A DNA stretch of 30,965 nucleotides from Eledone cirrhosa (lineage: Eukaryota). The position numbers and the translations under genes are program-made. Positions within the stretch are counted from its first letter, which is position 1; each line of letters begins with the position of its first letter. Location: positions 1 through 30,965 of the forward strand of contig CAXHJY010000317.1 in NCBI GenBank assembly GCA_964016885.1, read 5' to 3'. This document shows positions 3,682-30,184 of this stretch, in pieces. A model generated the notes under the pieces. The model worked only from the letters and a program-made list of their open reading frames with translations. It was not told where the DNA came from and did no database searches.

Positions 3682-3910
3682 ATCATCATCATCACTGTTT
3701 AATGTCCATTTTTCCGTGCTAGCATGGGTTAGACAAGTTGTCCCATTGTGAGACAAGTCAGATTAGATAACCATGTCTTGCTCACACAGAACTGTTTCTG
3801 GCTTGGTTTCTATAATTGGATATCCTTCCTTACGGCAACCACATTTACAGCATGGAGTGAATGCCTTTTTTGTGGCACCAAGATGACCAACTGACAGGTT
3901 GGACTGGGTG
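3682..3910 (-). mobile_element. RTE LINE 3' UTR fragment with (GAT)n tail
   Basis: The reverse complement aligns to 7420-7598 (aaggaagg.atcca..t.tagaaa.caagccag ... tctaacccatgctagc..ggaa ... gatgatgat). Confidence 0.8.
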
Positions 3911-4490
3911 CTTTTTGTCATGTCGCCAACACTACCACTTTACAGAGTTGACTGGGTCTTTTTGTCATCTCACCAGCATGACCACTTTACAGGGTGGACG
4001 GTGTACTTTTTGTCATGTCGCCAACACTACCACTTTACAGAGTAGACTGGGTGTTTTTGTCATCTCACCAGCATGACCACTTTACAGGGTGGACGGTGTA
4101 CTTTTTGTCATGTCGCCAACACTACCACTTTACAGAGTAGACTGGGTGTTTTTGTCATCTCACCAGCATGACCACTTTACAGGGTGGACGGTGTACTTTT
4201 TGTCATGTCACCAACACTACCACTTTACAGAGTAGACTGGGTGTTTTTGTCATCTCACCAGCATGACCACTTTACAGGGTGGACGGTGTACTTTTTGTCA
4301 TGTCGCCAACACTACCACTTTACAGAGTAGACTGGGTGTTTTTGTCATCTCACCAGCATGACCACTTTACAGGGTGGACGGTGTACTTTTTGTCATGTCG
4401 CCAACACTACCACTTTACAGAGTAGACTGGGTGTTTTTGTCATCTCACCAGCATGACCACTTTACAGGGTGGACGGTGTACTTTTTGTCA
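3911..4490. repeat. Tandem array, 6 x 95-bp dimeric unit (two ~47-bp subunits) derived from the RTE 3' UTR sub-repeat
   Basis: The anchor tgtc(g/a)ccaac recurs at 3921, 4016, 4111, 4206, 4301 and 4396. Subunits match the reverse complement of the ~47-bp repeat at ~7335-7430. Confidence 0.92.
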
Positions 4491-4978: not shown

Positions 4979-5203
4979 CACACACATATATATATATCAT
5001 CCACATTGCCATTGTATTTATATTTGCATGGGTGGGACAAAATATTTTGAGGCCATATTCTAAGGCTGGATAATACCTTTCCTGTTGACAACTCATACTT
5101 TATTTTTAAGTAAGGTACTTATTTCACTGATCTTTGTCTAATTGTTAAACTTTGGACAAATAAATAGTGTTACTATGAAGACATACATTTACACACAGAG
5201 TCA

Positions 5204-7598
5204 AGACCTCAAGCAGGAGGAGAGTGACTTGGTGGTGGAACAATAAGGTAGATGAAGCAGTCAAGGCCAAGAGACAGGCATGGAAAGAATGGAAGAACGG
5301 GGGGAGCAGGGTACATTACATAGAGACCAAGAGGGAAGCTAGGCGACAAGTATACTTAGCTAGGAGGGAAGCAGAGGATAGAAAATTCAAGCATGTTTTA
5401 CAACGTGAGGACCAGAAACAGGAGGTATTCAAGATTGCGAGGCAGTGTGTCAGAGATAGTTGTGATGTCATTGGAGAGAAGTGTATCCGGAATGATAAAG
5501 GTGAGCTTGCCCTCACAAGTGCTGAGAAGAAAGATGCATGGAAGAGTCATTATGATAGATTACTAAATGAGGAGAATGCATGGGAAGAAGAGACCCTACC
5601 CCACGTAGACCCTATAGAGGGACCAGCAGTACAAGTCAGCGGCAGCGTAGTAAGTAAGGCAATCAGAGATATGAAGATAGGGAAGGCAACCGGTCCATCG
5701 GGTATAGCTGCCGAGATGCTGAAGGCATCTGGGTCTGTAGGTCACACTATAACCACACGTATCGTTAACCAGGTAATACTAGAGGGGGCCATACCAAAAG
5801 ATTGGTGCAGTAGCATCATTGTCAACTGCTACAAAGGTAAAGGCGATGCACTAGATAGAGGAAACTATAGAGGTATAAAGTTGATGGACCAGGTCATGAA
5901 AGTAACAGAAAGAGTTATAGCACAGCTGATTAGGGACCGGGTGAATATAGACGAGATGCAATTTGGGTTTGTTCCAGGGAAAGGCACCACTGATGCGCTC
6001 TTCCTTGTGAGGCAATTACAGGAAAAGTACCTAGCTAAAAGTAAGCCACTCTACTTGGCATTTGTCGACCTTGAGAAAGCCTTTGACAGAGTTCCACGTG
6101 CAGTAATCTGGTGGGCTCTTAGAAAACTAGGAGTAGATGAATGGCTTGTGAAAGCGGTACAAGCCATGTATAGGGGAGCAGTCAGCAAAGTTAGGATTGG
6201 CAATGAGTATAGCGAGGAATTTAGCGTACAGGTTGGGGTCCACCAGGGCTCTGTTCTTAGCCCTCTCCTGTTCATCATAGTCCTGCAGGCAATAACGGAG
6301 GAGTTTAAGACCGGATGCCCATGGGAACTCCTGTATGCTGATGACCTCGCACTCATAGCTGAATCTATGGTAGAACTAGAGAATAAATTCCAAACCTGGA
6401 AGCAGGGACTAGAGAGAAAGGGCCTCAAAGTCAACATGACAAAGACTAAGGTCCTTATAAGTAGACGAGAAAACAGAACCCAGATCCCCTCAGGGAAATG
6501 GCCTTGCTCAGTATGTAGGAAAGGTGTAGGTAGGAACTCCATTCTTTGCCCCAAATGCAAACAATGGGTACACAAGAGATGTAGCGGGATCTCAGGAAGC
6601 TTAATTAAGAATGTAGGATTCACATGCAGCAGCTGTGCTGAAACAGCAAGCAAACAGCCACAGGAAACAAGTACCACCAATCTCTGGGAGGGCCCTGTAG
6701 AAACAGTAGACAGCTTCTGCTACCTAGGTGACCGAATTAGCAACGGAGGTGGGTGCTCAGAAAGTACAATAACTAGGGTAAGAACGGGATGGAAGAAGTT
6801 TAGGGAACTACTACCACTGCTAGCTGCAAAAGGCTTCTCCCTCAGAATGAAAGGCAGACTGTATGATGCGTGTATCCGAACAGCGATGTTGCATGGTAGT
6901 GAGACCTGGGCGCTGAAGGTGGAAGACTTACGTAGATTAGAGAGAAACGAAGCCTGCATGCTCCGATGGATGTGTAACAGTAATATACGTGAACGACAAA
7001 GCATAAATGAATTGAGAGAGAGACTGAGCATAAGAGGAATCAAATGCTGCGTGCAGGAGAGGCGGTTACGCTGGTATGGACATGTGATGCGTATGAAGGA
7101 TGACAGCTGCATAAAAAGGTGCAGAGCACTAGAAGTTGATGGAAACCGCGGAGTGGGGAGACCCAAGATGACTTGGGATGAGGTGATAAAAGCCGACCTT
7201 ACCCAACTACACCTCTCAAAGTCAATGACACACGACCGTGACTTCTGGCGTCACGCAGTAATACAGGGTACCCGACCTCCCATGGGTACATGCTGAAGCA
7301 TATAAACAATATGCCCCCCCCCCCCCCACCGCAAGGTGGTCGTGGAGGTGCCACGGCAAAAAAGCACCCAGCCCACACTGTAAAGTGGACGTGTAGGCGC
7401 CACGAAAAAGCACCCAGCACTCACTGTAAATGAGGTTGGTGTTAGGAAGGGCATCCAACTGTAGAAATCAAGCCAGATCAGTTCCTGTATGAGCAAGGCA
7501 TGGTCAGCCGACCAGACACTGCCCACAACAGGACAACCCGTCTAACCCATGCTAGCGTGGAAGAACGGACGTAAAACGGTGATGATGATGATGATGAT
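5204..7598 (+). mobile_element. 5'-truncated RTE-clade LINE
   Basis: RT ORF, ~300-bp 3' UTR and (GAT)n tail at 7581-7598. Candidate TSD gagtca at 5198-5203 and 7599-7604. Confidence 0.93.
5224..7296 (+). CDS. RTE-type reverse transcriptase (N-terminally truncated, no APE domain) with inserted PHD-type zinc finger
   Basis: 690 open codons. Motifs TWWWN, KATGPSG, NYRGIKL, QFGF, FVDLEKAFD, GVHQGSVLSP, YADD, FCYLG, RRLRWYGHV, GRPK. C4HC3 pattern at 6505-6636. The GTG start is probably an artefact of truncation. Confidence 0.9.
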   Translation: MTWWWNNKVDEAVKAKRQAWKEWKNGGSRVHYIETKREARRQVYLARREAEDRKFKHVLQREDQKQEVFKIARQCVRDSCDVIGEKCIRNDKGELALTSAEKKDAWKSHYDRLLNEENAWEEETLPHVDPIEGPAVQVSGSVVSKAIRDMKIGKATGPSGIAAEMLKASGSVGHTITTRIVNQVILEGAIPKDWCSSIIVNCYKGKGDALDRGNYRGIKLMDQVMKVTERVIAQLIRDRVNIDEMQFGFVPGKGTTDALFLVRQLQEKYLAKSKPLYLAFVDLEKAFDRVPRAVIWWALRKLGVDEWLVKAVQAMYRGAVSKVRIGNEYSEEFSVQVGVHQGSVLSPLLFIIVLQAITEEFKTGCPWELLYADDLALIAESMVELENKFQTWKQGLERKGLKVNMTKTKVLISRRENRTQIPSGKWPCSVCRKGVGRNSILCPKCKQWVHKRCSGISGSLIKNVGFTCSSCAETASKQPQETSTTNLWEGPVETVDSFCYLGDRISNGGGCSESTITRVRTGWKKFRELLPLLAAKGFSLRMKGRLYDACIRTAMLHGSETWALKVEDLRRLERNEACMLRWMCNSNIRERQSINELRERLSIRGIKCCVQERRLRWYGHVMRMKDDSCIKRCRALEVDGNRGVGRPKMTWDEVIKADLTQLHLSKSMTHDRDFWRHAVIQGTRPPMGTC

Positions 7599-7673: not shown

Positions 7674-8413
7674 TGGACAACATGAGAAGATTTCATTTCT
7701 TGAATTTAGGCAATCGCTATTGCGTAATTGCCTTAGAATATTTATCCTTTCTTCAATACACAGTCCACAAGATGGATTGCTCCTTGCGTATGGCTTGGAC
7801 TTAGTGATAACTTTCCATTGAATATAGTAGTCTATACCTGAGTCTTTGAGGGACCATAGTGTCTCGTGAGCTTTGTGGATGATCGTTTGTCCGGGTACCT
7901 AAAGGTCGACTGATGGTTCAGGAAGCGTTCCTTAAATCGGCCCTCTGCCATATTTGATTTGACCTCCTGTGGTCAGTTGGAAGTGACCTCAGCTTCATAA
8001 ACTACAGCGGGTGTGTTGCATTACTTTTGAAGCTTCAGGCTTTCAGCAAGAGCATCCTGGTGGGGTGCCGCTCTTAGGACTGTTGGTGATGTGAGCCTTC
8101 ATGTTCTTAGCGTAAGAGTACCCTAGTTTTACTCTGTGTCTATTAAAGATGGAGCAGTATTTGTGACCTATGGGAAAGTGTTTATCTAAGAAGTCTAACA
8201 TTTTTTTCTTTTTCCTGCATAGTTTTAACATTGAGTGAGAACCAGATAGTTTGTCTATTGTTACGATTTCTTTTCTTATTGCTGTTGTTAGTGGGGGAGT
8301 AAGTAATTGGTTGTGAAAAGCTGCTGTTAGCTAACGCTGTGTTATAGTAGGGGGTCGCTCTGTCAAAGATAGCCTGATTAGAGGAGAGGTTAGAGATTCT
8401 AGTACTGATATTA
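7674..8413 (-). pseudogene. Penelope-like element, C-terminal linker and GIY-YIG endonuclease (inverted arm)
   Basis: Reverse complement of 8464-9194 with scattered substitutions and indels. Confidence 0.85.
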
Positions 8414-8463
8414 CATACACAAGGACTCATGCCACCCTCCCACTGTTTTTAGAAACTTCATAA

Positions 8464-9485
8464 TAATATCAGTACTAGAATCTCTAACCTCTCCTCTAAT
8501 CAGGCTATCTTTGACAGAGCGGCACCCTACTATAACACGGCGTTAGCTAACAGCAGCTTTTCACAACCAATTACTTACTCCCCCACTAACAACAACAACA
8601 ATAAGAAAAGAAATTGTAACAATAGACAAACTATCTGGTTCTCTCCTCCATTCTCACTCAATGTTAAAACTAATGTAGGGAAAAATGTTTTAGCCCTCTT
8701 AGATAGACACTTTCCCATAGGTCACAAATACTGCTCCATCTTTAACAGACACAGAGTAAAACTAGGGTACTCCTGCGTTAAGAACATGAAGGCTCACATC
8801 ACCGACAGTCCTAAGATGTTCTTGCTGAAAGCCTGAAGCTTCTCCCCTTCAAAAGCAATGCAACACACCCGCTGTAGTTTATGAAGCTGAGGTCACTTCC
8901 AACCGACCACAGGAGATCAAATCCAATGTAGGTATGGCGGAGGGCCGATTTAAGGAACGCTTCCTGAACCATCAGTCGACCTTTAGGTACCTGGACAAAC
9001 GATCATCCACAAAGCTCACAAGCCACTATGGTCTCTCAAAGACTCAGGTATAGACTACTACATTCAATGGAAAGCTATCACTAAGGGGCAATCCGTCTTG
9101 TGGACTGTGTATTGAAGAAAGGATAAATATTCTAAGGCGATTACGTAATAGCGATTGCCTAAATTCAAGAAATGAAATCTTCTCATGTTGTCCACATGTC
9201 TGGAAACACCTCTTGCATAACTACAAAGCTCCGGATTGAATAGCAACATCATTCTAATTTTCTAATCAACTTGAACATATTATTCCAGACTCTTGCAGTT
9301 ATCTCCCTTACACCTTTCGCCCGTGGTTTTGTATTGCCTGGGTGAAGTGACCGTTTCTGCGCATGCACATTCATACGGTTGTCCTTCCTGTTCCGTATAA
9401 TCATTACCAGTCTGAGCTGAAGATCTGCTTAAAGTGAAACAATTGTTCTCGGTATGGTGAACTAATTGTTGTGTTACTACTTATA
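8464..9485 (+). mobile_element. 5'-truncated Penelope-like element (probably Naiad-type): linker, GIY-YIG EN, 3' UTR with hammerhead
   Basis: Translation across frameshifts gives IWFSPPFSLNVKTNVGK..LLDRHFP..IFNRHRVKLGYSC..CSC..PLQKQCNTPAVVYEAEV..VGMAEGRFKERFLNH..W..CGLCIEE..LNSRNEIFSCCPH, with stop at 9237-9239. The element ends at a (TA)n tract. Clade assignment is from recalled motifs only. Confidence 0.85.
9404..9460 (+). ncRNA. Minimal type I hammerhead ribozyme (stem II degenerate)
   Basis: Stem I ctgag/ctcgg with ttacca/tggtga extension; CUGAAGA 9417-9423; GAAAC 9436-9440; palindromic stem III acaattgt; triplet GUU 9445-9447. Confidence 0.75.
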
Positions 9486-9638
9486 TTTATATATATATAT
9501 GTATATTTAAAAGTTAAACAAGGTTCAATGAATAAATCAAAGAATGAGTTTTACAATAGATTGGAAGCACTCAACAGATTGGTTTTCCAGAGTTATTAAT
9601 ATTAATTCAAAATATTAACAAAATAGATATTCTTGTGA

Positions 9639-9705
9639 TATTTTATTATACATATTTCAGAGGTACTGAGTTAAGTTCAACAGTACGTCCTAATCAGATA
9701 AAATA
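9639..9705 (-). ncRNA. Type I hammerhead motif, core variant CUGAUUA
   Basis: Stem I tattttat/ataaaata, long stem II gtactg/cagtac, GAAA, quasi-palindromic stem III, triplet AUA. Confidence 0.6.
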
Positions 9706-9819
9706 AGATGATGCATGACATTCCCTGACATATTAGATGGTTAAGATTCAGTCATTAAAATTCACTACCATGACTGAATCTTAACCATCTAATATGTCAG
9801 GATATGTCATGCATCATCT

Positions 9820-9886
9820 TATTTTATCCGATGAGGATGTACTGTTGAACTTAACTCAGTACCTCTGAAATATGTATAATAAAATA
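9820..9886 (+). ncRNA. Type I hammerhead motif, core variant CCGAUGA
   Basis: Same fold as 9639-9705. The consensus of the two arms restores CUGAUGA. Confidence 0.6.
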
Positions 9887-9926
9887 TACTTGATCACAAG
9901 AATATCTATTTTGTTAATATTTTGAA

Positions 9927-9970
<44 letters not shown>

Positions 9971-9974
<4 letters not shown>

Positions 9975-10288
9975 CTTGCAATCGAAAGGTTGTGAGTTCA
10001 ATTCTCAGACTGGGTGATGTGTTGTTACCTTGAGCAAGACACTTTATTTCACATTGCTCAAGTTTACTCAGCTGTAGAAATGAGATGATAGGGACTGGGG
10101 TCCCTATCATTCCACTGCAAAGTGGTCGTGGCGGTGCCACGGCAAAAAAGCACCCAGCACTCACTGTAAAGGAGGTTGCTGTTAGGAAGGGCATCCAGCT
10201 GTAGAAATCAAGCCAGAATCAGTTCCCGTCCCACCCTTGTAAGCAGGGAAAAAGTGGACGTAAAATGAAATGAAAAAAATGAAATGAA
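9971..10288 (+). mobile_element. tRNA-derived SINE with RTE-derived 3' end (5'-truncated)
   Basis: Nearly identical to 14558-14850; B-box gagttcaattc; 3' half matches the LINE 3' UTR; (aaatg)n tail. Confidence 0.88.
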
Positions 10289-10464
10289 TATATATGTTTA
10301 TTATAAACATACAGAATATTTTCGAATATTCTATGTCTATATTCACATATATATCGCTATTTCAGAGCATTTATTCCAATTTCTAATTTCTGCCGGACCG
10401 GCAACCGCTCTTTCAAACCAGTTCCTGTACACAGCTAAGTATTCTATAAGTCTCTAGCTGTGTC

Positions 10465-10554
10465 ATTCTCGATAAAAGCACTGGATATGTAGTCCTGACG
10501 ATTTCTAACGAGAATGAAACGCGTAGATTTACTTCCCTTGCTTTTATCGAGAAT
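10465..10554 (+). ncRNA. Minimal type I hammerhead ribozyme, copy 1
   Basis: Outer 16-bp stem attctcgataaaagca/tgcttttatcgagaat; stem I gtagtc/gatttac; CUGACGA 10495-10501; stem II ttct-aacg-agaa closed by U.U; GAAAC 10516-10520; palindromic stem III acgcgt; GUA triplet, predicted cut after 10525. Confidence 0.88.
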
Positions 10555-10775
10555 CTAATTGTAATACGTGACGTATTCTATTCTATAGCGATTAGGTCTT
10601 CAAAATGTTTATTATAAACATACAGAATATTTTCGAATATTCTATGTCTATATTCACATATATATCGCTATTTCAGAGCATTTATTCCAATTTCTAATTT
10701 CTGCCGGACCGGCAACCGCTCTTTCAAACCAGTTCCTGTACACAGCTAAGTATTCTATAAGTCTCTAGCTGTGTC

Positions 10776-10865
10776 ATTCTCGATAAAAGCACTGGATATG
10801 TAGTCCTGACGATTTCTAACGAGAATGAAACGCGTAGATTTACTTCCCTTGCTTTTATCGAGAAT
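10776..10865 (+). ncRNA. Hammerhead ribozyme, copy 2
   Basis: Same sequence as copy 1 (+311). Confidence 0.88.
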
Positions 10866-11086
10866 CTAATTGTAATACGTGACGTATTCTATTCTATAGC
10901 GATTAGGTCTTCAAAATGTTTATTATAAACATACAGAATATTTTCGAATATTCTATGTCTATATTCACATATATATCGCTATTTCAGAGCATTTATTCCA
11001 ATTTCTAATTTCTGCCGGACCGGCAACCGCTCTTTCAAACCAGTTCCTGTACACAGCTAAGTATTCTATAAGTCTCTAGCTGTGTC

Positions 11087-11176
11087 ATTCTCGATAAAAG
11101 CACTGGATATGTAGTCCTGACGATTTCTAACGAGAATGAAACGCGTAGATTTACTTCCCTTGCTTTTATCGAGAAT
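11087..11176 (+). ncRNA. Hammerhead ribozyme, copy 3
   Basis: Same sequence as copy 1 (+622). Confidence 0.88.
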
Positions 11177-11397
11177 CTAATTGTAATACGTGACGTATTC
11201 TATTCTATAGCGATTAGGTCTTCAAAATGTTTATTATAAACATACAGAATATTTTCGAATATTCTATGTCTATATTCACATATATATCGCTATTTCAGAG
11301 CATTTATTCCAATTTCTAATTTCTGCCGGACCGGCAACCGCTCTTTCAAACCAGTTCCTGTACACAGCTAAGTATTCTATAAGTCTCTAGCTGTGTC

Positions 11398-11487
11398 ATT
11401 CTCGATAAAAGCACTGGATATGTAGTCCTGACGATTTCTAACGAGAATGAAACGCGTAGATTTACTTCCCTTGCTTTTATCGAGAAT
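11398..11487 (+). ncRNA. Hammerhead ribozyme, copy 4
   Basis: Same sequence as copy 1 (+933). Confidence 0.88.
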
Positions 11488-11708
11488 CTAATTGTAATAC
11501 GTGACGTATTCTATTCTATAGCGATTAGGTCTTCAAAATGTTTATTATAAACATACAGAATATTTTCGAATATTCTATGTCTATATTCACATATATATCG
11601 CTATTTCAGAGCATTTATTCCAATTTCTAATTTCTGCCGGACCGGCAACCGCTCTTTCAAACCAGTTCCTGTACACAGCTAAGTATTCTATAAGTCTCTA
11701 GCTGTGTC

Positions 11709-11798
11709 ATTCTCGATAAAAGCACTGGATATGTAGTCCTGACGATTTCTAACGAGAATGAAACGCGTAGATTTACTTCCCTTGCTTTTATCGAGAAT
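11709..11798 (+). ncRNA. Hammerhead ribozyme, copy 5
   Basis: Same sequence as copy 1 (+1244). Confidence 0.88.
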
Positions 11799-12019
11799 CT
11801 AATTGTAATACGTGACGTATTCTATTCTATAGCGATTAGGTCTTCAAAATGTTTATTATAAACATACAGAATATTTTCGAATATTCTATGTCTATATTCA
11901 CATATATATCGCTATTTCAGAGCATTTATTCCAATTTCTAATTTCTGCCGGACCGGCAACCGCTCTTTCAAACCAGTTCCTGTACACAGCTAAGTATTCT
12001 ATAAGTCTCTAGCTGTGTC

Positions 12020-12109
12020 ATTCTCGATAAAAGCACTGGATATGTAGTCCTGACGATTTCTAACGAGAATGAAACGCGTAGATTTACTTCCCTTGCTTTT
12101 ATCGAGAAT
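12020..12109 (+). ncRNA. Hammerhead ribozyme, copy 6
   Basis: Same sequence as copy 1 (+1555). Confidence 0.88.
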
Positions 12110-12330
12110 CTAATTGTAATACGTGACGTATTCTATTCTATAGCGATTAGGTCTTCAAAATGTTTATTATAAACATACAGAATATTTTCGAATATTCTAT
12201 GTCTATATTCACATATATATCGCTATTTCAGAGCATTTATTCCAATTTCTAATTTCTGCCGGACCGGCAACCGCTCTTTCAAACCAGTTCCTGTACACAG
12301 CTAAGTATTCTATAAGTCTCTAGCTGTGTC

Positions 12331-12420
12331 ATTCTCGATAAAAGCACTGGATATGTAGTCCTGACGATTTCTAACGAGAATGAAACGCGTAGATTTACTT
12401 CCCTTGCTTTTATCGAGAAT
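12331..12420 (+). ncRNA. Hammerhead ribozyme, copy 7
   Basis: Same sequence as copy 1 (+1866). Confidence 0.88.
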
Positions 12421-13049
12421 CTAATTGTAATACGTGACGTATTCTATTCTATAGCGATTAGGTCTTCAAAATGTTTATTATAAACATACAGAATATTTTC
12501 GAATATTCTATGTCTATATTCACATATATATCGCTATTTCAGAGCATTTATTCCAATTTCGAATATATATATATATATATATATGCACACATACACACAT
12601 GTAAAAATACCATTTCATGAAAGAATAAGTGGAAGCTGTACAATTTGAAAAACTCTCAAATTTTACTCACAACTCTTGAAACCCTTGCCTTTTTATTTTT
12701 TTTTATCAAGAAATATCCCCAGAATATTTTAGGGAACCCTAGGTCAGAGATCATTAAAACAAATTAAAATATCTTCTCTGATACACTGGATTCATTTCAC
12801 ATGCTCAGCTTACATACACATATATATATATATTTTTTCCCATCTATTTTTCTTTTCTTTCCCTGCCTCTTTCTCCCAGCAGCAGATGTGTTACTATCAT
12901 AGTTACCATTGCTCCCTCTACAATGCCTTTTCTGACATACTCTCACATCCTTCTCTCCTTTCCTCCCACTTTTCACCCTACCAAGGACACACCAACCTCT
13001 TTGCATTCAGGCCATCATATAATCTTCCTTGTGCACTCTGTAAGTAGTT

Positions 13050-14529: not shown

Positions 14530-14866
14530 GGAGGCACATGGCTTAGTGGTTAGAGCATTGGCCTTGCAATCGAAAGGTTGTGAGTTCAATTCTCAGACTG
14601 GGTGATGTGTTGTTTCCTTGAGCAAGACACTTTATTTCACATTGCTCCAGTTTACTCAGCTGTAGAAATGAGATGATGGGGTCCCTATCATTCCATTGTA
14701 AAGTGGACGTGTAGGCGCCATGGAAAAAAAGCACCCAGCACTCATTGTAAATGAGGTTGGTGTTAGGAAGGGCATCCAGCTGTAGAAATCAAGCCAGAAT
14801 CAGTTCCTGTCCCACCCTTGCAAGCAGGGAAAAGCGGACGTAAATTGAAATGATAATGATGATGAT
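14530..14866 (+). mobile_element. Full-length tRNA-derived SINE with RTE-derived 3' end
   Basis: Pol III A-box tggcttagtgg (14539-14549) and B-box gagttcaattc (14582-14592); central ccttgagcaagacactt domain; LINE-like 3' half; (GAT)n tail; (TA)n flanks. Confidence 0.9.
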
Positions 14867-16187: not shown

Positions 16188-16194
<7 letters not shown>

Positions 16195-16364
16195 ATATAG
16201 AAATGGCTTCTACAGGACTAGAACTGTTTCATTCAAAGGAAATCATCAGGCTTCGAATGAAACAGTTCTAGCCCTGTAGAAGCCATTTCTATATTAAATA
16301 TTTATACTCTGCTATGTATTGAGTACCTTACTTAATGTGGTTACCCCCGATTGAACCCGGGATA

Positions 16365-19165: not shown

Positions 19166-21094
19166 ATCATCATCATTGCTTTTACATCGTCTTTTCCATG
19201 CTGGCTCAGGTTGGGTGGGATCTTTTGAGACAATGTTTTACAGCCAGATGCCCTCCCTTACACCAATGTTTACAACACACGGAGATATGGTGTACCTATT
19301 CTAAACTGGATACGCATGGTCCTTCTCAGCATGGCATCTCTCTACTCATTGCATTCTTTTGTCATCTCCTTTGTGAGTCTCAGCAATTTGAGGTTAGCTT
19401 TCACAGCTTCAGCCCAGGTCTTCCTTGGTCTACCTGTAGTGTGACTTCCTTCCACTGGAATTTCCTGGCACTTCTTCACCTTGTAGACATCATCCATGTT
19501 GATCACATGTCCATACCAATTAAGTTTTCTCTCCTGCACACCATCTCCGATTCCCCTTAAACCCAGCTTCTCCCTCAACTCAACCAAGCTCTGCTTTTCT
19601 CTCACACTTACATTGCATATCTAACAAAGCATGATTGCTTCAGTTCTCTCCAGTCTATGCGTGTCCTCTGCAGTCATAGACCATGTTTCACTATCATGCA
19701 GTATCGCAGTTTGCACACAGGCATCATACAGTTGTCCTTTTGTATGTAGGGAGAAACCTTTTTTGGTCAACAGTGGGAATAGCTCTCTAAACTTCTTCCA
19801 TCCTAACCCTATTCTAGCTATTATGCTCTTAGAGCATCCTCCTCTATTGCTAATTAAATTGCCTTGATAGCAGAAGCTATCAACCACTTCAATGGGCCCT
19901 TCCTGAAACTGGAAAAGATTTATATCATTGGCGCTCTTCCCCTCATTTACCCATGCACATCTTCTACAGAAAAAAATTTTCTCTTCCTGTTAATCTACTT
20001 GTTATCCTACTACCTCTCTTATCTACCCAAGATTTACATTGTGTACATCGTATGGAGTTTATGCCTACTCCTCCTTTTCTACATACTGAGCAGGGCCACT
20101 TCCATGAAGAAATAAAGGTCCTATCTTCTCTCCTACTCATTAACACTTTAGTTTTGGCTAAGTTTTCTCTCAGACCTGCTGATCTGAAATTCCATAGTCG
20201 GAAGTTATTTTCTAATTCTTTTATGGATTCGGTTATAAAGACCAAATCATCTGCATAGAGAAGTTCCCATGGAAAGCACATTTAAACTCCTCTGTTATGG
20301 CCTGAAGAACTATGATGAATTGTAGTGTGCTAAGAACCGAACCTTGATGAACTCCTACCTGTACTTTGAATTCCTCGCTACACTCACAGTTCCTCTATAC
20401 ATAGCTTCCACTGCTCTCACAAGCCATTCTTCTACACCTAATTTCCTTAAAAACCACCAGATAATAGATCAACATACTCTGACAAAGGCCTTTTCTAGAT
20501 CAACAAAAGCTAAATATAGTGGCTTATTTTTGGCTAGGAACTTCTCTTGCAGTTGCCACACTAAGAAGAGGGCATCTGTAGTACTTTTCCCAGGCATGAA
20601 ACCAAACTGCATCTCATCTATTTTGACTCTTTCCCTAATTAGCTGCACTATAACTCTTTCTGTCACTGTCATAACTTGGTCCTTTTGTTTTATTCCTCTA
20701 TAGTTGCTCCTTTCTAGAACATCACCTTTGCCCTTGTAGCAGTTTATGATTGTACTACTGCACCTGTCATTGGGTCCTGTACTCTGTCCTGTACTATCTG
20801 ATTGACTATGTGGGTTACTAGTTTGACTCCTACTTCTCCCAATGCTTTTAATATCTCAGCAGCTAGCTCTGATGGTCCCACAGCTTTACCATCCTTCATC
20901 TCTTAGATTGTTTCTCTATAGCTGATCCTGCTGTTGGATAGGCTGGGGTAGTTTCTCTTCCTTCTGTATAACCCCTAGATTCATCAGTCTCTCATAGTAA
21001 CATTTCCAGGCCTCTTTCTTTTGAGCATCAGTGGTGCTAAATGCATTGGTGTCATTTATAACACACTTTTCCCTAACAACATATTGATTTACAC
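19166..21094 (-). pseudogene. Decayed RTE LINE, RT/PHD and 3' part
   Basis: ORF fragments QFGFMPGKSTTDALFL, FVDLEKAF, PWELLYADD, WPCSVCRKG, GWKKFRELF, WYGHV parallel the 5224-7296 protein; (GAT)n tail at 19166-19177. Confidence 0.92.
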
Positions 21095-21736: not shown

Positions 21737-22785
21737 TCAATGGGACCCTTGAACTTTATGGAGTCTAGCTAACTCTTTGACGTCAGGCTGGATTTTCGTA
21801 AGATGTAGCTGGAGATCTCCACATGTAATTACATTGTAGCGGTTGCAAGCCTTACTGTGCAGTCTGGAAACAGCACCAAATCTCCTCTTGACTAAGTATG
21901 AGCTTGGAAAAGGCAGAGAAAATCTCTTAGCCTCTGCATATAGGTGTGGAAATCGACGCTGAATTTCCTCTTGCATCCAAAAAAGAGGTTCACCTATGTT
22001 TGGAAATCTAATTTTGATCATGTCATCTGCTTGAAGTTCAAAGAATTCTTCCTGAAATATAATGTCCAAATCATTAACGTTAGCTATGAAGGGATCTGCT
22101 ACCCACATTGGGATGTCCATCGGCAAAAGGTCGACAAACAGTTCTCCCATGTTGTCTTGTAGCGCACGGAGCTGAGTGGTATAAATTTGGAGTTGGTCAT
22201 CGCTTACAATGTTTTAAACATTGGCGACACTAGGAAAATTATAGAATTCCCGTCAACAAAGATTCCTTTCGATGACATTCAATTTGGCCAGGAATGTTTT
22301 TCACAGCATTCCTTGCTTTAACCAAGGTGATCTTCTTCCTCTGCAAAGCCAAAATGACGCTATTGCATTTGTCGATGATGTTGGTGAGGTAGGCGCAGTT
22401 TTGCCTCACATTTCTTGTACAGTCTGTGTTGCGTCCTCGCAGAAACACAATGATAGAGTCGAACAGTTCAAAGAAGTGAGTAAGGTACTTGCCCTTTGAA
22501 AGCCACCTCACTTCATTATGAAGGAGCAACTTGACAAATTCTTCGTCATTATCTTAGCACAGTTGCCGGAAAATTCGTTCATTAAGGGAATGCGGTTTGA
22601 TGACATCAAGGGCCACCTGCAAGGACTTGCTCAGTGGCTTGCTGAGTTTCTTCGCAGCCAAGTGTTGTCGATGAATGACACAATGAACAACAAATACAGA
22701 TAGATTTTCTCTCTTCAGAAGAGTGATGAAACCCTTATGTTGGCCGACCATTGCTCTTGCGTCGTCCGTAGCACATGATACAATG
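21737..22785 (-). pseudogene. Buster-family hAT transposase, C-terminal two-thirds, frameshifted
   Basis: CATDDARAMVG, HCVIHRQHL, LLHNEVRWLSKG, LPFPSSYL, GDLQLHLTKIQPD..QGSH. Confidence 0.9.
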
Positions 22786-23310
22786 TGTGTTGTATTTGGT
22801 CCTAGATGTATATATTACCTGCTTATGTATTGCATGTGGTCCCAGCTGTATGTATTACCTGCTTGTGTGTTGTATGTGGTCCTAGATGTGTGTATTACCT
22901 GCTTGTGTGTTGTATGTGGTCCTAGATGTGTGTATTACCTCCTTATGTGTTGTATGTGGTCCTAGATGTATGTATTACCTGATTATGTGTTGTATGTGGT
23001 CCTAGATGTTTGTATTACCTGATTATGTGTTGTATGTGGTCCTAGATGTTTGTATTACCTGCTTATGTGTTGTATGTGGTCCTAAATGTATGTATTACTT
23101 GCTTGTGTGTTGTATGTGATCTTAGATGCGTGTATTACCTGCTTATGTGTTGTATGTAGTCCTAGATGTATGTATTACCTGATTATGTGTTGTATGTGGT
23201 CCTAAATGTGTGTATTACCTGCTTATGTGTTGTATGTGGTCCTAAATGTATGTATTACCTGCTTGTGTGTTGTATGTGGTCCTAGATGTGTGTGCTACCC
23301 GCTTCTGTGT
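22783..23310. repeat. 40-bp minisatellite, ~13 copies
   Basis: Unit atgtgttgtatgtggtcctagatgtgtgtattacctgctt; anchors at 22801, 22841, 22881 and so on. Confidence 0.95.
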
Positions 23311-23766
23311 TTTTTTTTATTTTTTTATTTGTAATATTATTTATACAATAGGGAATACAATAGATCTACATAGTGTTAACTCGTTACAGTTGAGTCAATC
23401 ATTTCAGACATGAAATACATTGTTATCAGTGAAGGAAAGACAAGATCCTAACTGGCTGCACCCGAAGTGTCCTTGACCCAGTTGACTCGGTTTTTCCATT
23501 GTTAGGATCTCAATTGCCAGTTAATGTCTAGACACACCTGCACACCTGCTCACATCAGCGGTCAGACAATAGTTATGCTGTCTGCATGCTCATTCAAATG
23601 CATTCACACTGGCTGTCTCAAAGACATATAAATATGGTTTATAAAACTTACCAAAGTAAAGAGTCTTCCAGTGCCCCTCAAAGCTCCAAACGCCCCCCCC
23701 CTAACGCCCCCTTGGAGTTCCAAAACGCCCCCCGGGGGTGCATATGCCCCCCGTTGAGAACCTTTG

Positions 23767-25461: not shown

Positions 25462-25890
25462 ATATATAATATTATAAAGCTGAGTGTCGTGTGTATTATG
25501 TATGTATATATCCTACACACCTCCCTATAGTTTGTTAGCTTTACTCACTCCGTCGCTCTTCCCTCTCTCTATAATAGATCATTACCCCTCTCTATAATTT
25601 AACTGCTTTACTCTCTCTGTCGCTCTTCACTCTCAAATATTATAAAGCTGATCATCATTTCTCTCTCTCTCTCCCTCTTTTACTCTCTCCATCGCTCTTC
25701 CCTCTCTCTATAATAGATCATTCCCCCTCTCTATAATTTAACTGCTTTACTCTCTCTGTCGCTCTTCACTCTCAAATATTAAAAAGCTGAGCTATAATTT
25801 AACTGCTTTACTCTCTATATGACAACACTCTTTTACTTTCCGTAGCGTCGTCGTATGTATGTTTATTTCGGCAATTGCCGGATAACATCA
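25462..25890 (+). mobile_element. Possible non-autonomous Helitron-like element with internal direct repeats
   Basis: 5' aatattataaagctga followed by (gtat)n, and a subterminal palindrome cggcaattgccg at ~25869-25880. A second copy (25958-25989 plus 30190-30325) is split by the Gypsy element. No terminal CTAG seen. Confidence 0.45.
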
Positions 25891-25989
25891 AAACAGAACA
25901 CACAGACACACACATGCACAAACACACATACACAAACTCACACACACACACATATATATTTATAAAGCTGAAGGTCGTATGTATATATG

Positions 25990-26259
25990 TGTGGGTATGG
26001 TGCGGTGTGCGGTGGCCGGAAGCTGGGGAGTGCTCGACCGGAAGAGTGCTTGACCGGAAGGGTGCTTGGCCGGAAGGGTGCTCGACCGGAAGGGCCAGCA
26101 GATCGGTCTCTCTCTAGTGGTGACCACGAACGGTGTGGACGCGAGCTTGGCAGCTCCCGGGTGTTAATAAGTTGGACGCACGTGGAAGAGGAGAAACCAG
26201 CCTTGGGATTTAACGGTGCCTATGAAAAGCGGTAAGTGAGATAGCTTTTTCTAACCACA
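25990..26259 (+). repeat. 5' LTR (270 bp)
   Basis: TG...CA ends; four 16-bp internal repeats. Confidence 0.95.
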
Positions 26260-26394
26260 AGCTATTTAGGCACTGGAAACTGAGATCTGATTGAAAAAAA
26301 AAAAAAAAAACTTTCTCGAAAACAAAGCTACTGGAAAAACAGAGAGGAGTCTGTTGGGTTTTTTTTTATTACGTACCGCAAGACAAATTAGGAT

Positions 26395-27156
26395 ATGGTG
26401 ACGAGACTACGAACGAGTGAAGCGATTAGGGCATTTACTGGTGAAGGCGATGTTCTCGCTTGGCTGCGAAAAGTCCGGCTGATCGCAAGCTTACAGAAGA
26501 TAGAAGATGTGGCTGGCCTCATGGCACTGTACCTCGAGGGGGACGCGTTGGTACTCTTCCTTGAGTTAGATGAACACAGCCAAAGGGATGCGCAAAAGAT
26601 TGAGAGGCGCATGGTGGAAGCGTTCGCAGAGGGACTGTTAGCCGCTTTTGCTAAGCTGGCAAGAATTAGATGGAACGGCGAACGCGTTGACATTTTCGCA
26701 GCGGAAATAAGGCGATTGGCCATGTTGGCTGGATATCAGGTGGAATGCGAACGCACGGTGCGGTTGGCGTTCATAAATGGATTTCCAGACGACATAACGG
26801 TGAAACTGCAGCAAGTCCCGGGTTACAAAGAAATGGAGATGTGTTCACTGGTGGAACAAGCCCTGATCATAGCAGAAGATGCCAAGAAGAGTGTCGCGGC
26901 GATAGCAACTACAGAGGCTCAAGACAGCTGGCAGTGAAATGGTGAAAGGGAGGCAACCACAGCACGCGGTCGCCCGCGAACGTTTAGCGGTCGCTGTTTT
27001 AGGTGCCAAGGCCCGCACATGGCGAGAGACTGTAGAGAGTCAAGGCCGGAAATAATATGCTATCGGTGTAAGCAACCAGGCCACATCGCTACTAACTGCG
27101 ACCAGGGAAACGATCCAAGGGGAATTACTGCGCCGGTAGTTGCCCCTTACGAGTAG
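26395..27156 (+). pseudogene. gag: Gag with premature TGA at 26935-26937 and two zinc knuckles
   Basis: In frame after the stop: CFRCQGPHMARDC and CYRCKQPGHIATNC; TAG at 27154-27156. Confidence 0.88.
27105..27111 (+). other. -1 ribosomal frameshift slippery site G GGA AAC
   Basis: Correct X XXY YYZ phase in gag; the -1 frame is open through the protease motif RALVDTGC (27201). Confidence 0.75.
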
Positions 27157-29906
27157 AGGCGCTGCCCGTGGTGGAAGTCTTCGTGAGGGGAAAGCCACAG
27201 CGAGCCCTCGTGGACACGGGCTGTACGACGACACAGGTGACCGCGGGGGTGGTGGAGAGGGAAGAGCAGCGTAAGGGCAGTCGACGGCAGGAAAATTGAA
27301 TGCCGTGGTTGCAACGAGGTGGAGATGGCGGTACAGGGAAGGAAAATAAGGCTTTCTGCCATCGTAGTTGACAACGTGGTGGATGGGATCGGCGTGGTTA
27401 TGGGCATGGACGCAATTGGCCGTCTAGGAGGCGTCACAGTGAACAACGTCGGTGTGTCGTTTGGCGGCGCTGCATCGGTATGCGCTGTGAGTACGCGACA
27501 GGAGAACCAGAAGGCCCACGAGGAGAAACACCCCGCTTACACTGTGCAGGACAAAGACTTCAAGGCCGTGTTCGATGGGCAGCGATGGGTTGTTGAGTGG
27601 TACTGGAAGGGAGAACCACCAACACTGAAGACCAAAGTGGGCTGCTATCAACACATATTGAAGGGAGACATTAGGAGCGAGTTCGAGCGAGAGGTAGAGA
27701 GATGGATTGAGGAGGGCATACTGCTTCCCTGGAAAGAGGAGGTGAAGTGCGGAGTATTGCCGTTAATGGCGGTGGCGCAACCCACGAAGATCAAGGTGAG
27801 GCCGGTACTGGACTTTCGGGAGCTGAACGAGCATGTGTCATGCCACACGGGTGGCGTGGTCACGGATGTCTGTGGAGAAACCCTGCGTGAGTGGAGATGC
27901 ATGACGGGGGGCTCAGCAATCGTAGATCTAAAGTTGGCATACTTGCAATTGCATATAGATGAGAAGCTCTGGCAGTATCAGCTGGTCAGGTATAAGGGCC
28001 GGACATATTGCCTGACCAGGCTAGGTTTCGGGCTGAGCTCCGCACCGAAGATCATGGCGGTGGTCAAGACCATTCTGGGAAAGGCCGACAAGATGAAGAG
28101 AGCCACTAACTCCTACATTGACGACATCCTAGTGGACGAGTCTGTAGTGTAGGCAGCGGGGGTCACGAGCCATTTACAGGGGTATGGACTGGCTGCGAAG
28201 CCGTCAGAAGCGTTGGAGGGCGGAGCCGCGCTGGGACTTAGGCTACGGTGAGACAGGACGGGCGTCTTGGTATTCCAGAGGGTAAATGAAGTTCCAGAAC
28301 TGGGCCCAAGTATGAGTAGGCGGGAGCTTTTCTCGGTGTGTGGAAAGTTGGTGGGTCACTACCCGATTGCTGGGTGGCTCCGGACGGCATGCAGCTATGT
28401 CAAGAGACGAACGGGAGGGGTGACTTGGAGTGACAGAGTGGGAGAGAGGACGGTGGCCATGATGCAGGAGATCGTGGAGAGGGTGAAGGCCGACGACCCA
28501 GTGCGGGGACGCTGGTATGTTCCCAAATCGCAGAGCGGGACTGTATGGTGCGATGCCAGCAGCATAGCGCTGGGTTTCACGTTGGAGATAGGAGGTGTTG
28601 AGGTCGAGGATGCAGCCTGGCTTAGGAAGAAGGACAACTGCAACCACATCAATGTGGCCGAACTGGACGCAGTGTTGAGAGGGGTGAACTGGACGCAGTG
28701 TTGAGAGGACTGCGCACCATCGAGATATGCACCGACTCGGCTACTGTACTCGGATGGGTGGGGTGAGATCAGTGAGAAGAGAGTCCGAACGAGAGGGGCG
28801 GCGAAGATGCTGATAAAGCGCCGCCTGGGAACTTCAGGAGAGCTGGCCACCGAGTTCGACCTGAGGCTGAGCGTAGTTTTAACCAGGGTGAAGAAAGCCT
28901 GGATGGAAGCGCCGGAGGAGGTAGAAGATGAGATAGCTGCCGTGTGTCGGCTGACCGAGTCGGATCTGAAAAGGTTGCATGACATGCACCACATGGGAGT
29001 GGATAGGACCCTGTTCCTAGCCAGGAGAATCGACTCGGACGTCAACAGACACAGTGTTCAAAGGGTGGTTAGAGGCTGCGTCCGATATCAGTCCATTGAT
29101 CCCGCCCCGGATGTGCACAAAACGGGACCCTCCCGGTGGATCGCGACTTGAAGCGATTGGCAGTGGATGTAACGCACTACCGACAGGGAACGTACCTCTC
29201 GATGGTCGACTGTAGACCAGGACGGATGGCGATATGGAGGGAGATGAAGACTGGAACAGCCGAGGAAATCATGCGGACGTTGAGAGAGGTATTCTTGGAG
29301 CGGGGCCCTGTGGACGAACTGCTGATGGACAACAGCGCAGCGTTCCGCTCGGAGGCGCTGAGGGAGATGCTCGATGGATGGAAGGTGGACCATTTCTTCA
29401 GAGCAGCGCACAGGCCAGAATGGAATTGTGGAGCGACACCACCGGACGATCAAGGCGATGGCGGAGCGGGGCCATATCTCACGAATGGAGGCAGTGTTCT
29501 GGTACAACATGTCCCCTTGGATGGGACAGGTTGAGGAATCGGTGCCACACAGAGCAGTATTCAGATACGAGTGGCGGCACCCGTGCACGCCACCACAACG
29601 GCCAGTGGCGAGAGAGAATGCATTCGTGCAGGTGGGCGAAGAAGTCTGGGTTAAGCCCCAGATGCACGTTGCACATCTCAATGGGGAAGGGGAACGGTGA
29701 CGGCCGTAAATTCCAGAACAATGTGTCCGTGGACAGAGTACCACGTCATGTCCTGGATGTCCGTACAATCATTGTCAACGGACTCCGAGGAAGAGGAAAC
29801 TCAAAGTGCCTCCCCAACACTGCGGAGATCGCAAAGAAGTCGCAAACCACCAACCTGGACAGCAGACTTTCATATGCAGAAGGACGAGGGGGAAATTGAT
29901 CCTTGA
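27111..29906 (+). pseudogene. pol: Pol (PR-RT-RNaseH-IN), multiple stops and frameshifts
   Basis: LVDTGC; VRPVLDFRELN, LGFGLSSAP, YIDD; WCDAS, HINVAELDAV; HDMHHMG, LAVDVTH, LLMDN, NGIVERHHRTIK. Confidence 0.92.
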
Positions 29907-29930
29907 GATCAGGGGGGGGGGGGGGGGGCG

Positions 29931-30184
29931 TGTGGGTATGGTGCGGTGTGCGGTGGCCGGAAGCTGGGGAGTGCTTGACCGGAAGGGTGCTTGGCCGGAA
30001 GGGTGCTCGACCGGAAGGGCCAGCAGATCGGTCTCTCTCTAGTGGTGACCACGAACAGTGTGGACGCAAGCTTGGCAGCTCCCGGGTGTTAATGAGTTGG
30101 ATGCACGTGGAAGAGGAGAAATCAGCAATGGGATTTAGCGGCGCCTATGAAAAGCGGTAAGTGAGATAGCTTTTTCTAACCACA
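29931..30184 (+). repeat. 3' LTR (254 bp)
   Basis: Matches the 5' LTR minus one 16-bp repeat; I count 9 substitutions. Confidence 0.95.

Follow-up and report, generated by a model that had tools for sequence, protein, structure and literature searches.

The stretch of DNA analysed here, contig CAXHJY010000317.1 of the Eledone cirrhosa assembly GCA_964016885.1 (positions 1 to 30,965 of the forward strand, 30,965 nt in all, hereafter the window), contains a tandem array that belongs to a new and very young family of retrozymes of the kind without long terminal repeats (non-LTR retrozymes). The retrozyme class is already known, and what is new is the insertion anatomy of the loci: most copies in the genome consist of two arrays joined head to head at their 5'-truncated ends, one array ending at a site A of the repeat unit and its partner at a site B, about 30-40 nt further on. 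The footprint makes it very likely that the arrays were inserted by the machinery of Penelope-like elements (PLEs). The two-arm anatomy is invisible in the window because the locus there is of the minority, single-arm type.

The array covers 2,267 nt, i.e., 7.29 units of 311 bp with 0 mismatches, which confirms the 7.3 identical, hammerhead-bearing units claimed in a preliminary description made from the letters alone. Unit positions are counted here from the first base 3' of the predicted cleavage site. All the parts named in that description were found again in the units: the core CUGACGA occurs seven times, spaced at 10495+311n, and GAAAC-GC-GUA ends at 10525, 10836 ... 12391 (10525+311n), reproducing the predicted cut positions and the six full monomers between them; stem I (gtagtc/gatttac) contains one bulged U, stem II has 4 bp (UUCU/AGAA), closed by the loop AACG and with a U.U at its base, and each hammerhead is enclosed by a perfect 16-bp helix. 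The GC content of the unit is 35%, and the asserted lack of open reading frames (ORFs) holds for stop-to-stop frames of at least 100 amino acids (aa). The features of the locus, all on the forward strand, are as follows.

10294 to 12560, +: retrozyme array of 7.29 identical 311-bp units, a single-arm insertion with its 5' truncation at unit position 80-82 and its end at unit position 169 (site B)
10465 to 10554, +: hammerhead domain of the first unit with its 16-bp enclosing helix (10465-10480/10539-10554), recurring every 311 nt; the helix pairs covary with the sister family
10489 to 10532, +: type I hammerhead of the first unit, predicted from sequence
10489 to 10494, 10495 to 10501 and 10502 to 10515, +: 5' strand of stem I, core CUGACGA, and stem II with the U.U base
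10516 to 10525 and 10526 to 10532, +: GAAAC-GC-GUA (with the palindrome ACGCGU), predicted cleavage 3' of 10525, and 3' strand of stem I
10526 to 12391, +: six predicted 311-nt monomers between seven cleavage sites
10585 to 10725, +: cassette at unit position ~60-200, 73-85% identical to older sister families, containing end sites A and B and a GC hairpin (10703-10713)
12519 to 12531, +: site A, unit position 128-140, the short 3' end at other loci, its exact base blurred by TA microhomology
12552 to 12560, +: site B, unit position 161-173 across loci and 169 in the window, the long 3' end, where the array meets the (TA)n target
10286 to 10295, +: left copy of a probable 10-bp target-site duplication, GAATATATAT, its terminal AT doubling as unit sequence
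12561 to 12570, +: right copy of the probable target-site duplication, continuing into (TA)n

An empty allele of the window locus was looked for and not found, and at other loci target-site duplications are masked by (TA)n. Six sequencing runs were listed, none of them on record as RNA; in three of the four that were used, of unrecorded kind, the unit assembled as one 340-nt contig (unit plus 30 nt), a result that circles and tandem DNA give alike, and the depth of the unit relative to a neighbouring short repeat in these runs resembles that of the run with genome-like diversity.

The units show the marks of a type I hammerhead, namely the core C3UGANGA9, G12AAA, NUH, and stems I and II, with stem I open-ended. 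Among 20,000 dinucleotide-shuffled versions of the unit, searched on both strands, none matched the corresponding descriptor, and the 101-nt hammerhead domain folds with a z of -4.7; the minus strand folds equally well (z -5.0), so that folding energy gives no strand call. The canonical metazoan type I form has been described as having a helix I of 6 bp, a helix II of 4 bp and a helix III of 1-2 bp with a palindromic loop, and the minimal form of PLEs, exemplified by Schistosoma, as having a helix I of 4-5 bp with an ill-defined loop and a helix II of 7-8 bp (PMC4209133). By this definition the predicted hammerhead of the unit, with 6 bp plus an extension in helix I and 4 bp in helix II, is of the canonical metazoan type I form, and the earlier label 'minimal' was wrong. 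With its short palindromic helix III, this form depends on a second copy and is considered inactive while in a monomer circle (PMC4209133); the self-duplex of the palindrome ACGCGU has an energy of -9.5 kcal/mol.

Evolutionary support comes from an alignment of eight variants of the young family with nine sister copies, in which 95.9% of the cells pair, against 40-50% when the alignment is slid. Seven pairs are changed on both sides between the young and the sister family, among them the core pair 3-8 (C3-G8 to U3-A8), two pairs of stem II, one of stem I and one of stem III, and U3-A8 is a known natural variant of the core (PMC4209133). Eleven of 15 recurrent locus-fixed variants fall on non-core positions of the 52-nt hammerhead domain, the tolerant positions being N7, loop II, 10.1 and stem I, and none of 27 fixed variants lies in the 14 core positions, where about one would be expected, a deficit insignificant alone. 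Several observations weigh on the other side. The core is mispaired in the lowest-energy predicted fold of the monomer, opening of which costs 3.4 kcal/mol; stem II has a predicted probability of 0.09 within the circle; the Rfam check suggested in the preliminary description was negative, no hammerhead family matching the window at E<=1 or a 461-nt query at E<=10; and the covariation amounts to one comparison of two lineages, seven pairs being reached by 31 of 500 shuffles. Taken together, the hammerhead is very probably real and the units very probably of the retrozyme class.

The family is large. With two mismatches allowed, the hammerhead core pattern has 18,871 matches in the 3.0-Gb genome and 0 in the reversed control, and an independent hairpin motif has 19,359, sister families being caught too. 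Identical units are present on many contigs, and the 310-nt unit is commoner than the 311-nt unit (295 of 495 units). Genome-wide, there are 1,411 exact end junctions at site A and 1,015 at the commonest site B, which gives at least 1,400 loci, and the family totals ~6 Mb, or 0.2% of the genome. Its loci differ by ~1%, a few haplotypes dominating (10, 9, 6 and 5 of 56 loci). As in other non-LTR retrozymes, the tandem units are within 150-450 bp, carry a type I hammerhead each, have a GC content below 50% and no ORF, and are dispersed in many copies. An older sister family is 68% identical over the unit, with its own copies ~86-92% alike, and sister families (loci L140-L169 and L295-L334) have retained the cassette and use the same A and B sites, their hammerheads being different (U3-A8 core, and a 4-bp stem III in L305) and their copies comprising ~1-2 units per arm, 3.1 at most. 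The earlier idea of a retrozyme-type locus with a dimer-dependent hammerhead is thus supported by unit size, GC content, the lack of ORFs, the ~19,000 dispersed units returned by the copy-number check, and the covariation with a sister family. The term 'satellite' is too weak: the loci are dispersed retro-insertions that look like dead ends.

The arms of the loci were mapped in four sets, comprising 18 best-hit loci together with the window locus, the first 10 loci of contig C1, 35 loci selected by their B end, and 20 selected by their A end for lacking a partner at the commonest B end. In most loci two arrays meet at their 5'-truncated ends through short overlaps or templated inserts, head to head in 57 cases and tail to tail in one. 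The sense 3' ends point outward, 112 of 120 lying in (TA)n, and one ends at unit position ~128-140 (A), its partner at ~161-173 (B). Two-arm loci with one A and one B end number 14/16, 9/9, 31/31 and 13/13 in the four sets, i.e., 67 of 69, and there is not a single AA or BB locus; the two that depart from the rule, and count against it, are L046 (beside an N gap) and L049. When the listed ends in the first 198 Mb of C1 were paired, a sample that overlaps the mapped sets, 52 of 52 pairs were AB, leaving 48 A and 21 B ends unpaired. Single-arm loci number 3, 1, 4 and 7 in the four sets; of the four in the third set, one reaches a stretch of Ns and two exceed the fetched sequence, with an A partner indicated by coordinates. 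The window locus has a single, B-ended arm and a probable 10-bp duplication.

The inner junctions between the arms vary from locus to locus. The two 5' break points are unrelated and the offset between them is uniform, which argues that the junction is not a fold-back and disfavours fold-back self-priming (a model set out in PMC3846280) as its origin. Junctions can also be complex, as in the multi-switch junction at L100 4843-5020, and at L037 5674 a 14-nt slippage duplication lies within an AT hairpin.

This anatomy is that of PLEs, whose insertions include an inverted copy truncated at its 5' end and a one-sided tail of 30-40 bp, are biased toward microsatellites and have target-site duplications of 8-10 bp (PMC8557442, PMC3846280). 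The retrozyme loci have the same head-to-head 5'-truncated copy, a one-sided tail of ~30-40 bp and a microsatellite or AT-rich target. PLEs are abundant in the genome searched, with at least five Neptune-like families (L200-L219, L240-L269), open frames of up to 1,096 aa and, in several elements, the CX2-5CxxC linker of Neptune; the labels Neptune-like and Hydra-like are presumptive, being assigned from motifs rather than from a tree. Read by eye and with fragment pairs dropped, the ends of their two-arm loci are likewise one short and one long in family N1 (6/6), in N4 (4), in N5 (5) and in a Hydra-like family (5), and also in ~16 two-arm loci of another hammerhead element; N3 offers one clear and one ambiguous case. 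The N1 copies are 97.9-98.7% alike, and N1, N4 and N5 bear U3-A8 hammerhead-like motifs (by eye). In vitro, a purified PLE protein nicks both strands and extends them, starting at two sites inside the RNA that mark the limits of the tail (PMC11167929).

Other results count against the model proposed below. Both strands share their start sites in vitro, without a strand difference, so that the AB rule is not predicted by that experiment alone, and hammerhead cleavage was dispensable for insertion there (PMC11167929). The unit has no BLAST homology with the terminal repeats of the fetched PLE loci, and none of 69 sister-family loci is contiguous with a PLE ORF. No partner PLE with a homologous terminal repeat (pLTR) was identified among the PLE family of the window, the GIY-YIG matches, 20 longer stretches, N5 and 40 further sister-family loci; N5 and the unit have in common a single short TTCA(TA)n motif at site A, and three Hydra-like ORFs had no match in Pfam. 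The retrozyme unit has no ORF for a reverse transcriptase (RT) and GIY-YIG endonuclease and is therefore not an autonomous PLE. The conserved cassette at unit position ~60-200 may represent the element by which the RT of the partner binds and primes.

The template was approached through 345 units from 42 C1 loci. Units differ on average by 0.46 changes within an arm, 0.23 between the arms of a locus and 3.69 between loci, and the two arms have the same haplotype at 26 of 27 loci, compared with 92 of 861 random pairs. Variants private to one locus have reached fixation in both of its arms, for example in 20/20 and 16/16 units. Such clonality points to a single-unit template for each insertion, and a closed monomer circle quite probably fits best. 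Multimeric circles were rejected, as no variant recurs in phase in both arms. Two observations sit uneasily with a single-unit template, the mosaic locus L117 (1 of 31), whose arms mix two haplotypes, and the three longest arrays (L108, L109 and L130), which repeat some variants and of which part of the length may therefore be later duplication.

If the circle is replaced by a cleaved linear monomer, with its ends held by stem I and the 16-bp helix and the PLE RT jumping from the 5' to the 3' end without any ligation, the clonal units and the AB rule are explained equally well. The enclosing helix does place both monomer ends side by side, and the variants of the family cluster at unit positions 2-3, adjoining the junction. 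Template jumps by non-LTR RTs are, however, expected to fail or to add bases, whereas the 5' breaks do not pile up at the cleavage site (2 of 78 arms within 10 nt of it, 5.3 expected) and unfixed changes at the junction occur in a mere 2 of 367 units, which makes this route unlikely. Somewhat less probable still is mobilization by a PLE from uncut multimers transcribed from a small number of source arrays, with the hammerhead incidental to transposition. Unprocessed RNA was indeed used for PLE insertion in vitro (PMC11167929), and the few dominant haplotypes would suit a few sources. The mosaicism of such arrays should nevertheless be inherited, yet 30 of 31 loci are uniform at sites polymorphic in the family; with 3.7 changes between loci, this would need repeated single-unit bottlenecks, and the hammerhead has been preserved with compensatory changes.

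Arm lengths fit an exponential with means of 1.2 and 1.6 kb, and the longest locus (C1 97461502-97476452) extends over ~15 kb (48 units) from its B end to the paired A end. Growth of such arms by unequal crossover or slippage after short PLE-type insertions of 1-2 units per arm (minisatellite growth is discussed in 10.64898/2026.07.22.740005) would agree with the variants repeated in the three longest arrays and is nonetheless very improbable: the youngest family is the long-armed one, the short copies of the older sisters argue against growth with age, and each of the two inverted arms would need its own expansion at more than 1,000 loci that differ by ~1%. A route at the DNA level, either a foldback-type transposon (foldback elements resemble these loci in their long inverted arms made of tandem repeats) or rolling-circle amplification of excised DNA circles, from which clonal units are also expected, has hardly any likelihood left, given that the ends are unequal by a fixed tail and always outward in the hammerhead sense, that the inner junctions are locus-specific, and that the RT and GIY-YIG elements of the genome display the same geometry.

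We regard as reasonably likely a model in which a 311-nt monomer RNA circle is the template: a PLE enzyme primes on it from both target strands and rolls around it. The array would be transcribed, adjacent hammerheads would pair via ACGCGU and cut as dimers, and the monomers would be closed into circles by an RtcB-type ligase, as in vitro for axolotl and mussel retrozymes (PMC7229834); the lone hammerhead of a circle being unable to form stem III, the circle is proposed to stay closed. A PLE RT-endonuclease, plausibly a dimer, would then nick both (TA)n strands, prime one of them at site A and its complement at site B, copying several turns from each, and the two truncated cDNAs would be joined through short microhomology or templated fill-in. 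The window locus would represent the single-arm outcome, B-primed, with ~7 turns and a 10-bp duplication. It counts against the model that just one of nine Xenopus retrozyme dimers was cleaved in vitro (10.64898/2026.07.22.740005).

A bolder version, tentative and in our judgement rather doubtful, takes each locus as a fossil of twin rolling-circle target-primed reverse transcription by a PLE dimer on one 311-nt RNA circle, with A/B starts and a length tuned by the ribozyme. Two RTs would be forced onto different fixed sites and each would roll from several to at least 25 turns, the PLE 'tail' would record the seating of an asymmetric dimer on a single RNA, and hammerheads that act only as dimers would give closed circles and long arrays, those of sister families, with a stem III of 3-4 bp, giving 1-2 units.

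The window contains further elements. At 7674-9482 lies a two-arm, head-to-head PLE remnant of an abundant family, presumably Hydra-like, with an ORF fragment at 8453-8836, a hammerhead-like motif at 9417 and its right end in (TA)n. It is followed at ~9505-9938 by a palindromic insertion bounded by (TA)n on either side, in which a decayed hammerhead-like motif was read by eye near 9825; matches to Rfam mir-279 were traced to this insertion and, with the other Rfam matches, dismissed as products of palindromes and simple repeats. A third hammerhead element, F3 (window 16191-16364, L135 3095-3290 and L220-L239), is young elsewhere in the genome (92-100%) and occurs as short two-arm copies, with a stem II identical to that of the retrozyme and an A/B offset of ~70 nt; no ORF of a parent element was found for it. 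The remaining elements are a non-LTR retrotransposon frame of 705 aa at 5179-7296 (RVT_1 and PHD matches), with decayed copies near 19621-20855, an LTR-retrotransposon-like element at ~25800-30140, of which the gag/pol frames are broken and the terminal repeats, near 26030 and 29971, match each other, and, at 3876-4490, 22786-23311, 14537-14600 and 21737-22553, 95-bp and 40-bp tandem repeats with a weak tRNA-like Rfam match and fragments that we take to be transposase-like.

Expression and circles have been proven for the non-LTR retrozymes of coral, mussel and axolotl/newt (satellite 2), and it has been hypothesized that tandem cDNA is made from the circles, with PLEs named as candidate movers (PMC7229834). 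The family described here resembles these metazoan retrozymes in its units of 150-450 bp with one type I hammerhead each, its GC content below 50%, its lack of ORFs and its thousands of copies, and the candidate 10-bp duplication in the window, if genuine, would agree with their target-site duplications of more than 4 bp; the stem III of 1 bp with a palindromic tetraloop, acting as a dimer, is like that of HHR_Amex1, and the U.U at the base of stem II like that of HHR_Amex2 (PMC7229834). Unlike them, as described in that source, most of its loci are two-armed, targeted to (TA)n and subject to the A/B rule; the words 'inverted', 'tail' and 'microsatellite' do not occur in the main text of PMC7229834, the supplement lying outside the search. 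For vertebrates, mobilization of non-LTR retrozymes by PLEs has been proposed on the basis of co-distribution and of pLTR homology, present in 24 of 57 Xenopus families, in a survey of 35 species, none of them a mollusc, that calls the mechanism unresolved (10.64898/2026.07.22.740005). Here, too, retrozymes co-occur with PLEs, whereas no pLTR homology was found and the evidence is the insertion footprint; later tandem expansion is considered in that work and the present arrays look born long. Its main text, searched without the supplements, does not discuss insertion footprints, inverted arms or tails. For the 311-bp family and the one-A, one-B rule, no description was found in the open literature, subscription papers and repeat databases lying outside the search, and the two-arm A/B anatomy may be common among retrozymes once looked for.

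What enzyme mobilizes animal retrozymes, and whether it uses the circle as its template, are open questions in PMC7229834 and 10.64898/2026.07.22.740005, as is the origin of the inverted copy and one-sided tail of PLEs in PMC8557442 and PMC11167929. More than 1,400 near-unmutated insertions provide countable footprints for both sets of questions, namely the geometry of PLEs in a non-coding RNA, a bottleneck of one unit at every insertion and a one-A, one-B rule common to the PLEs of the genome. They make these questions directly testable: for the existing in vitro assay, the family defines a substrate of 311 nt, a pair of start sites and (TA)n as the target. If the model is true, natural rolling-circle reverse transcription writes kilobase arrays into an animal genome.

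In the twin priming of L1, both target strands prime cDNA and the head-to-head junction shows microhomology. The two priming events of L1 use the poly(A) end and an internal position, on stretches of RNA that do not overlap; in the present loci the two priming sites are fixed, with ~30-40 nt between them, and the same unit is copied many times in either arm. A further likeness is to the endonuclease-bearing PLEs Neptune, Hydra and Poseidon, which have the head-to-head 5'-truncated copy, the one-sided 30-40-bp tail, AT-rich or microsatellite targets, target-site duplications of 8-10 bp and a type I hammerhead upstream of the 3' end (PMC8557442, PMC3846280, PMC11167929). Unlike these elements, the retrozyme has neither RT nor endonuclease and its entire insertion consists of multimers of the 311-nt unit, and the tail that is described for PLEs as optional at one end is counted here as a strict rule of one A and one B end per locus.

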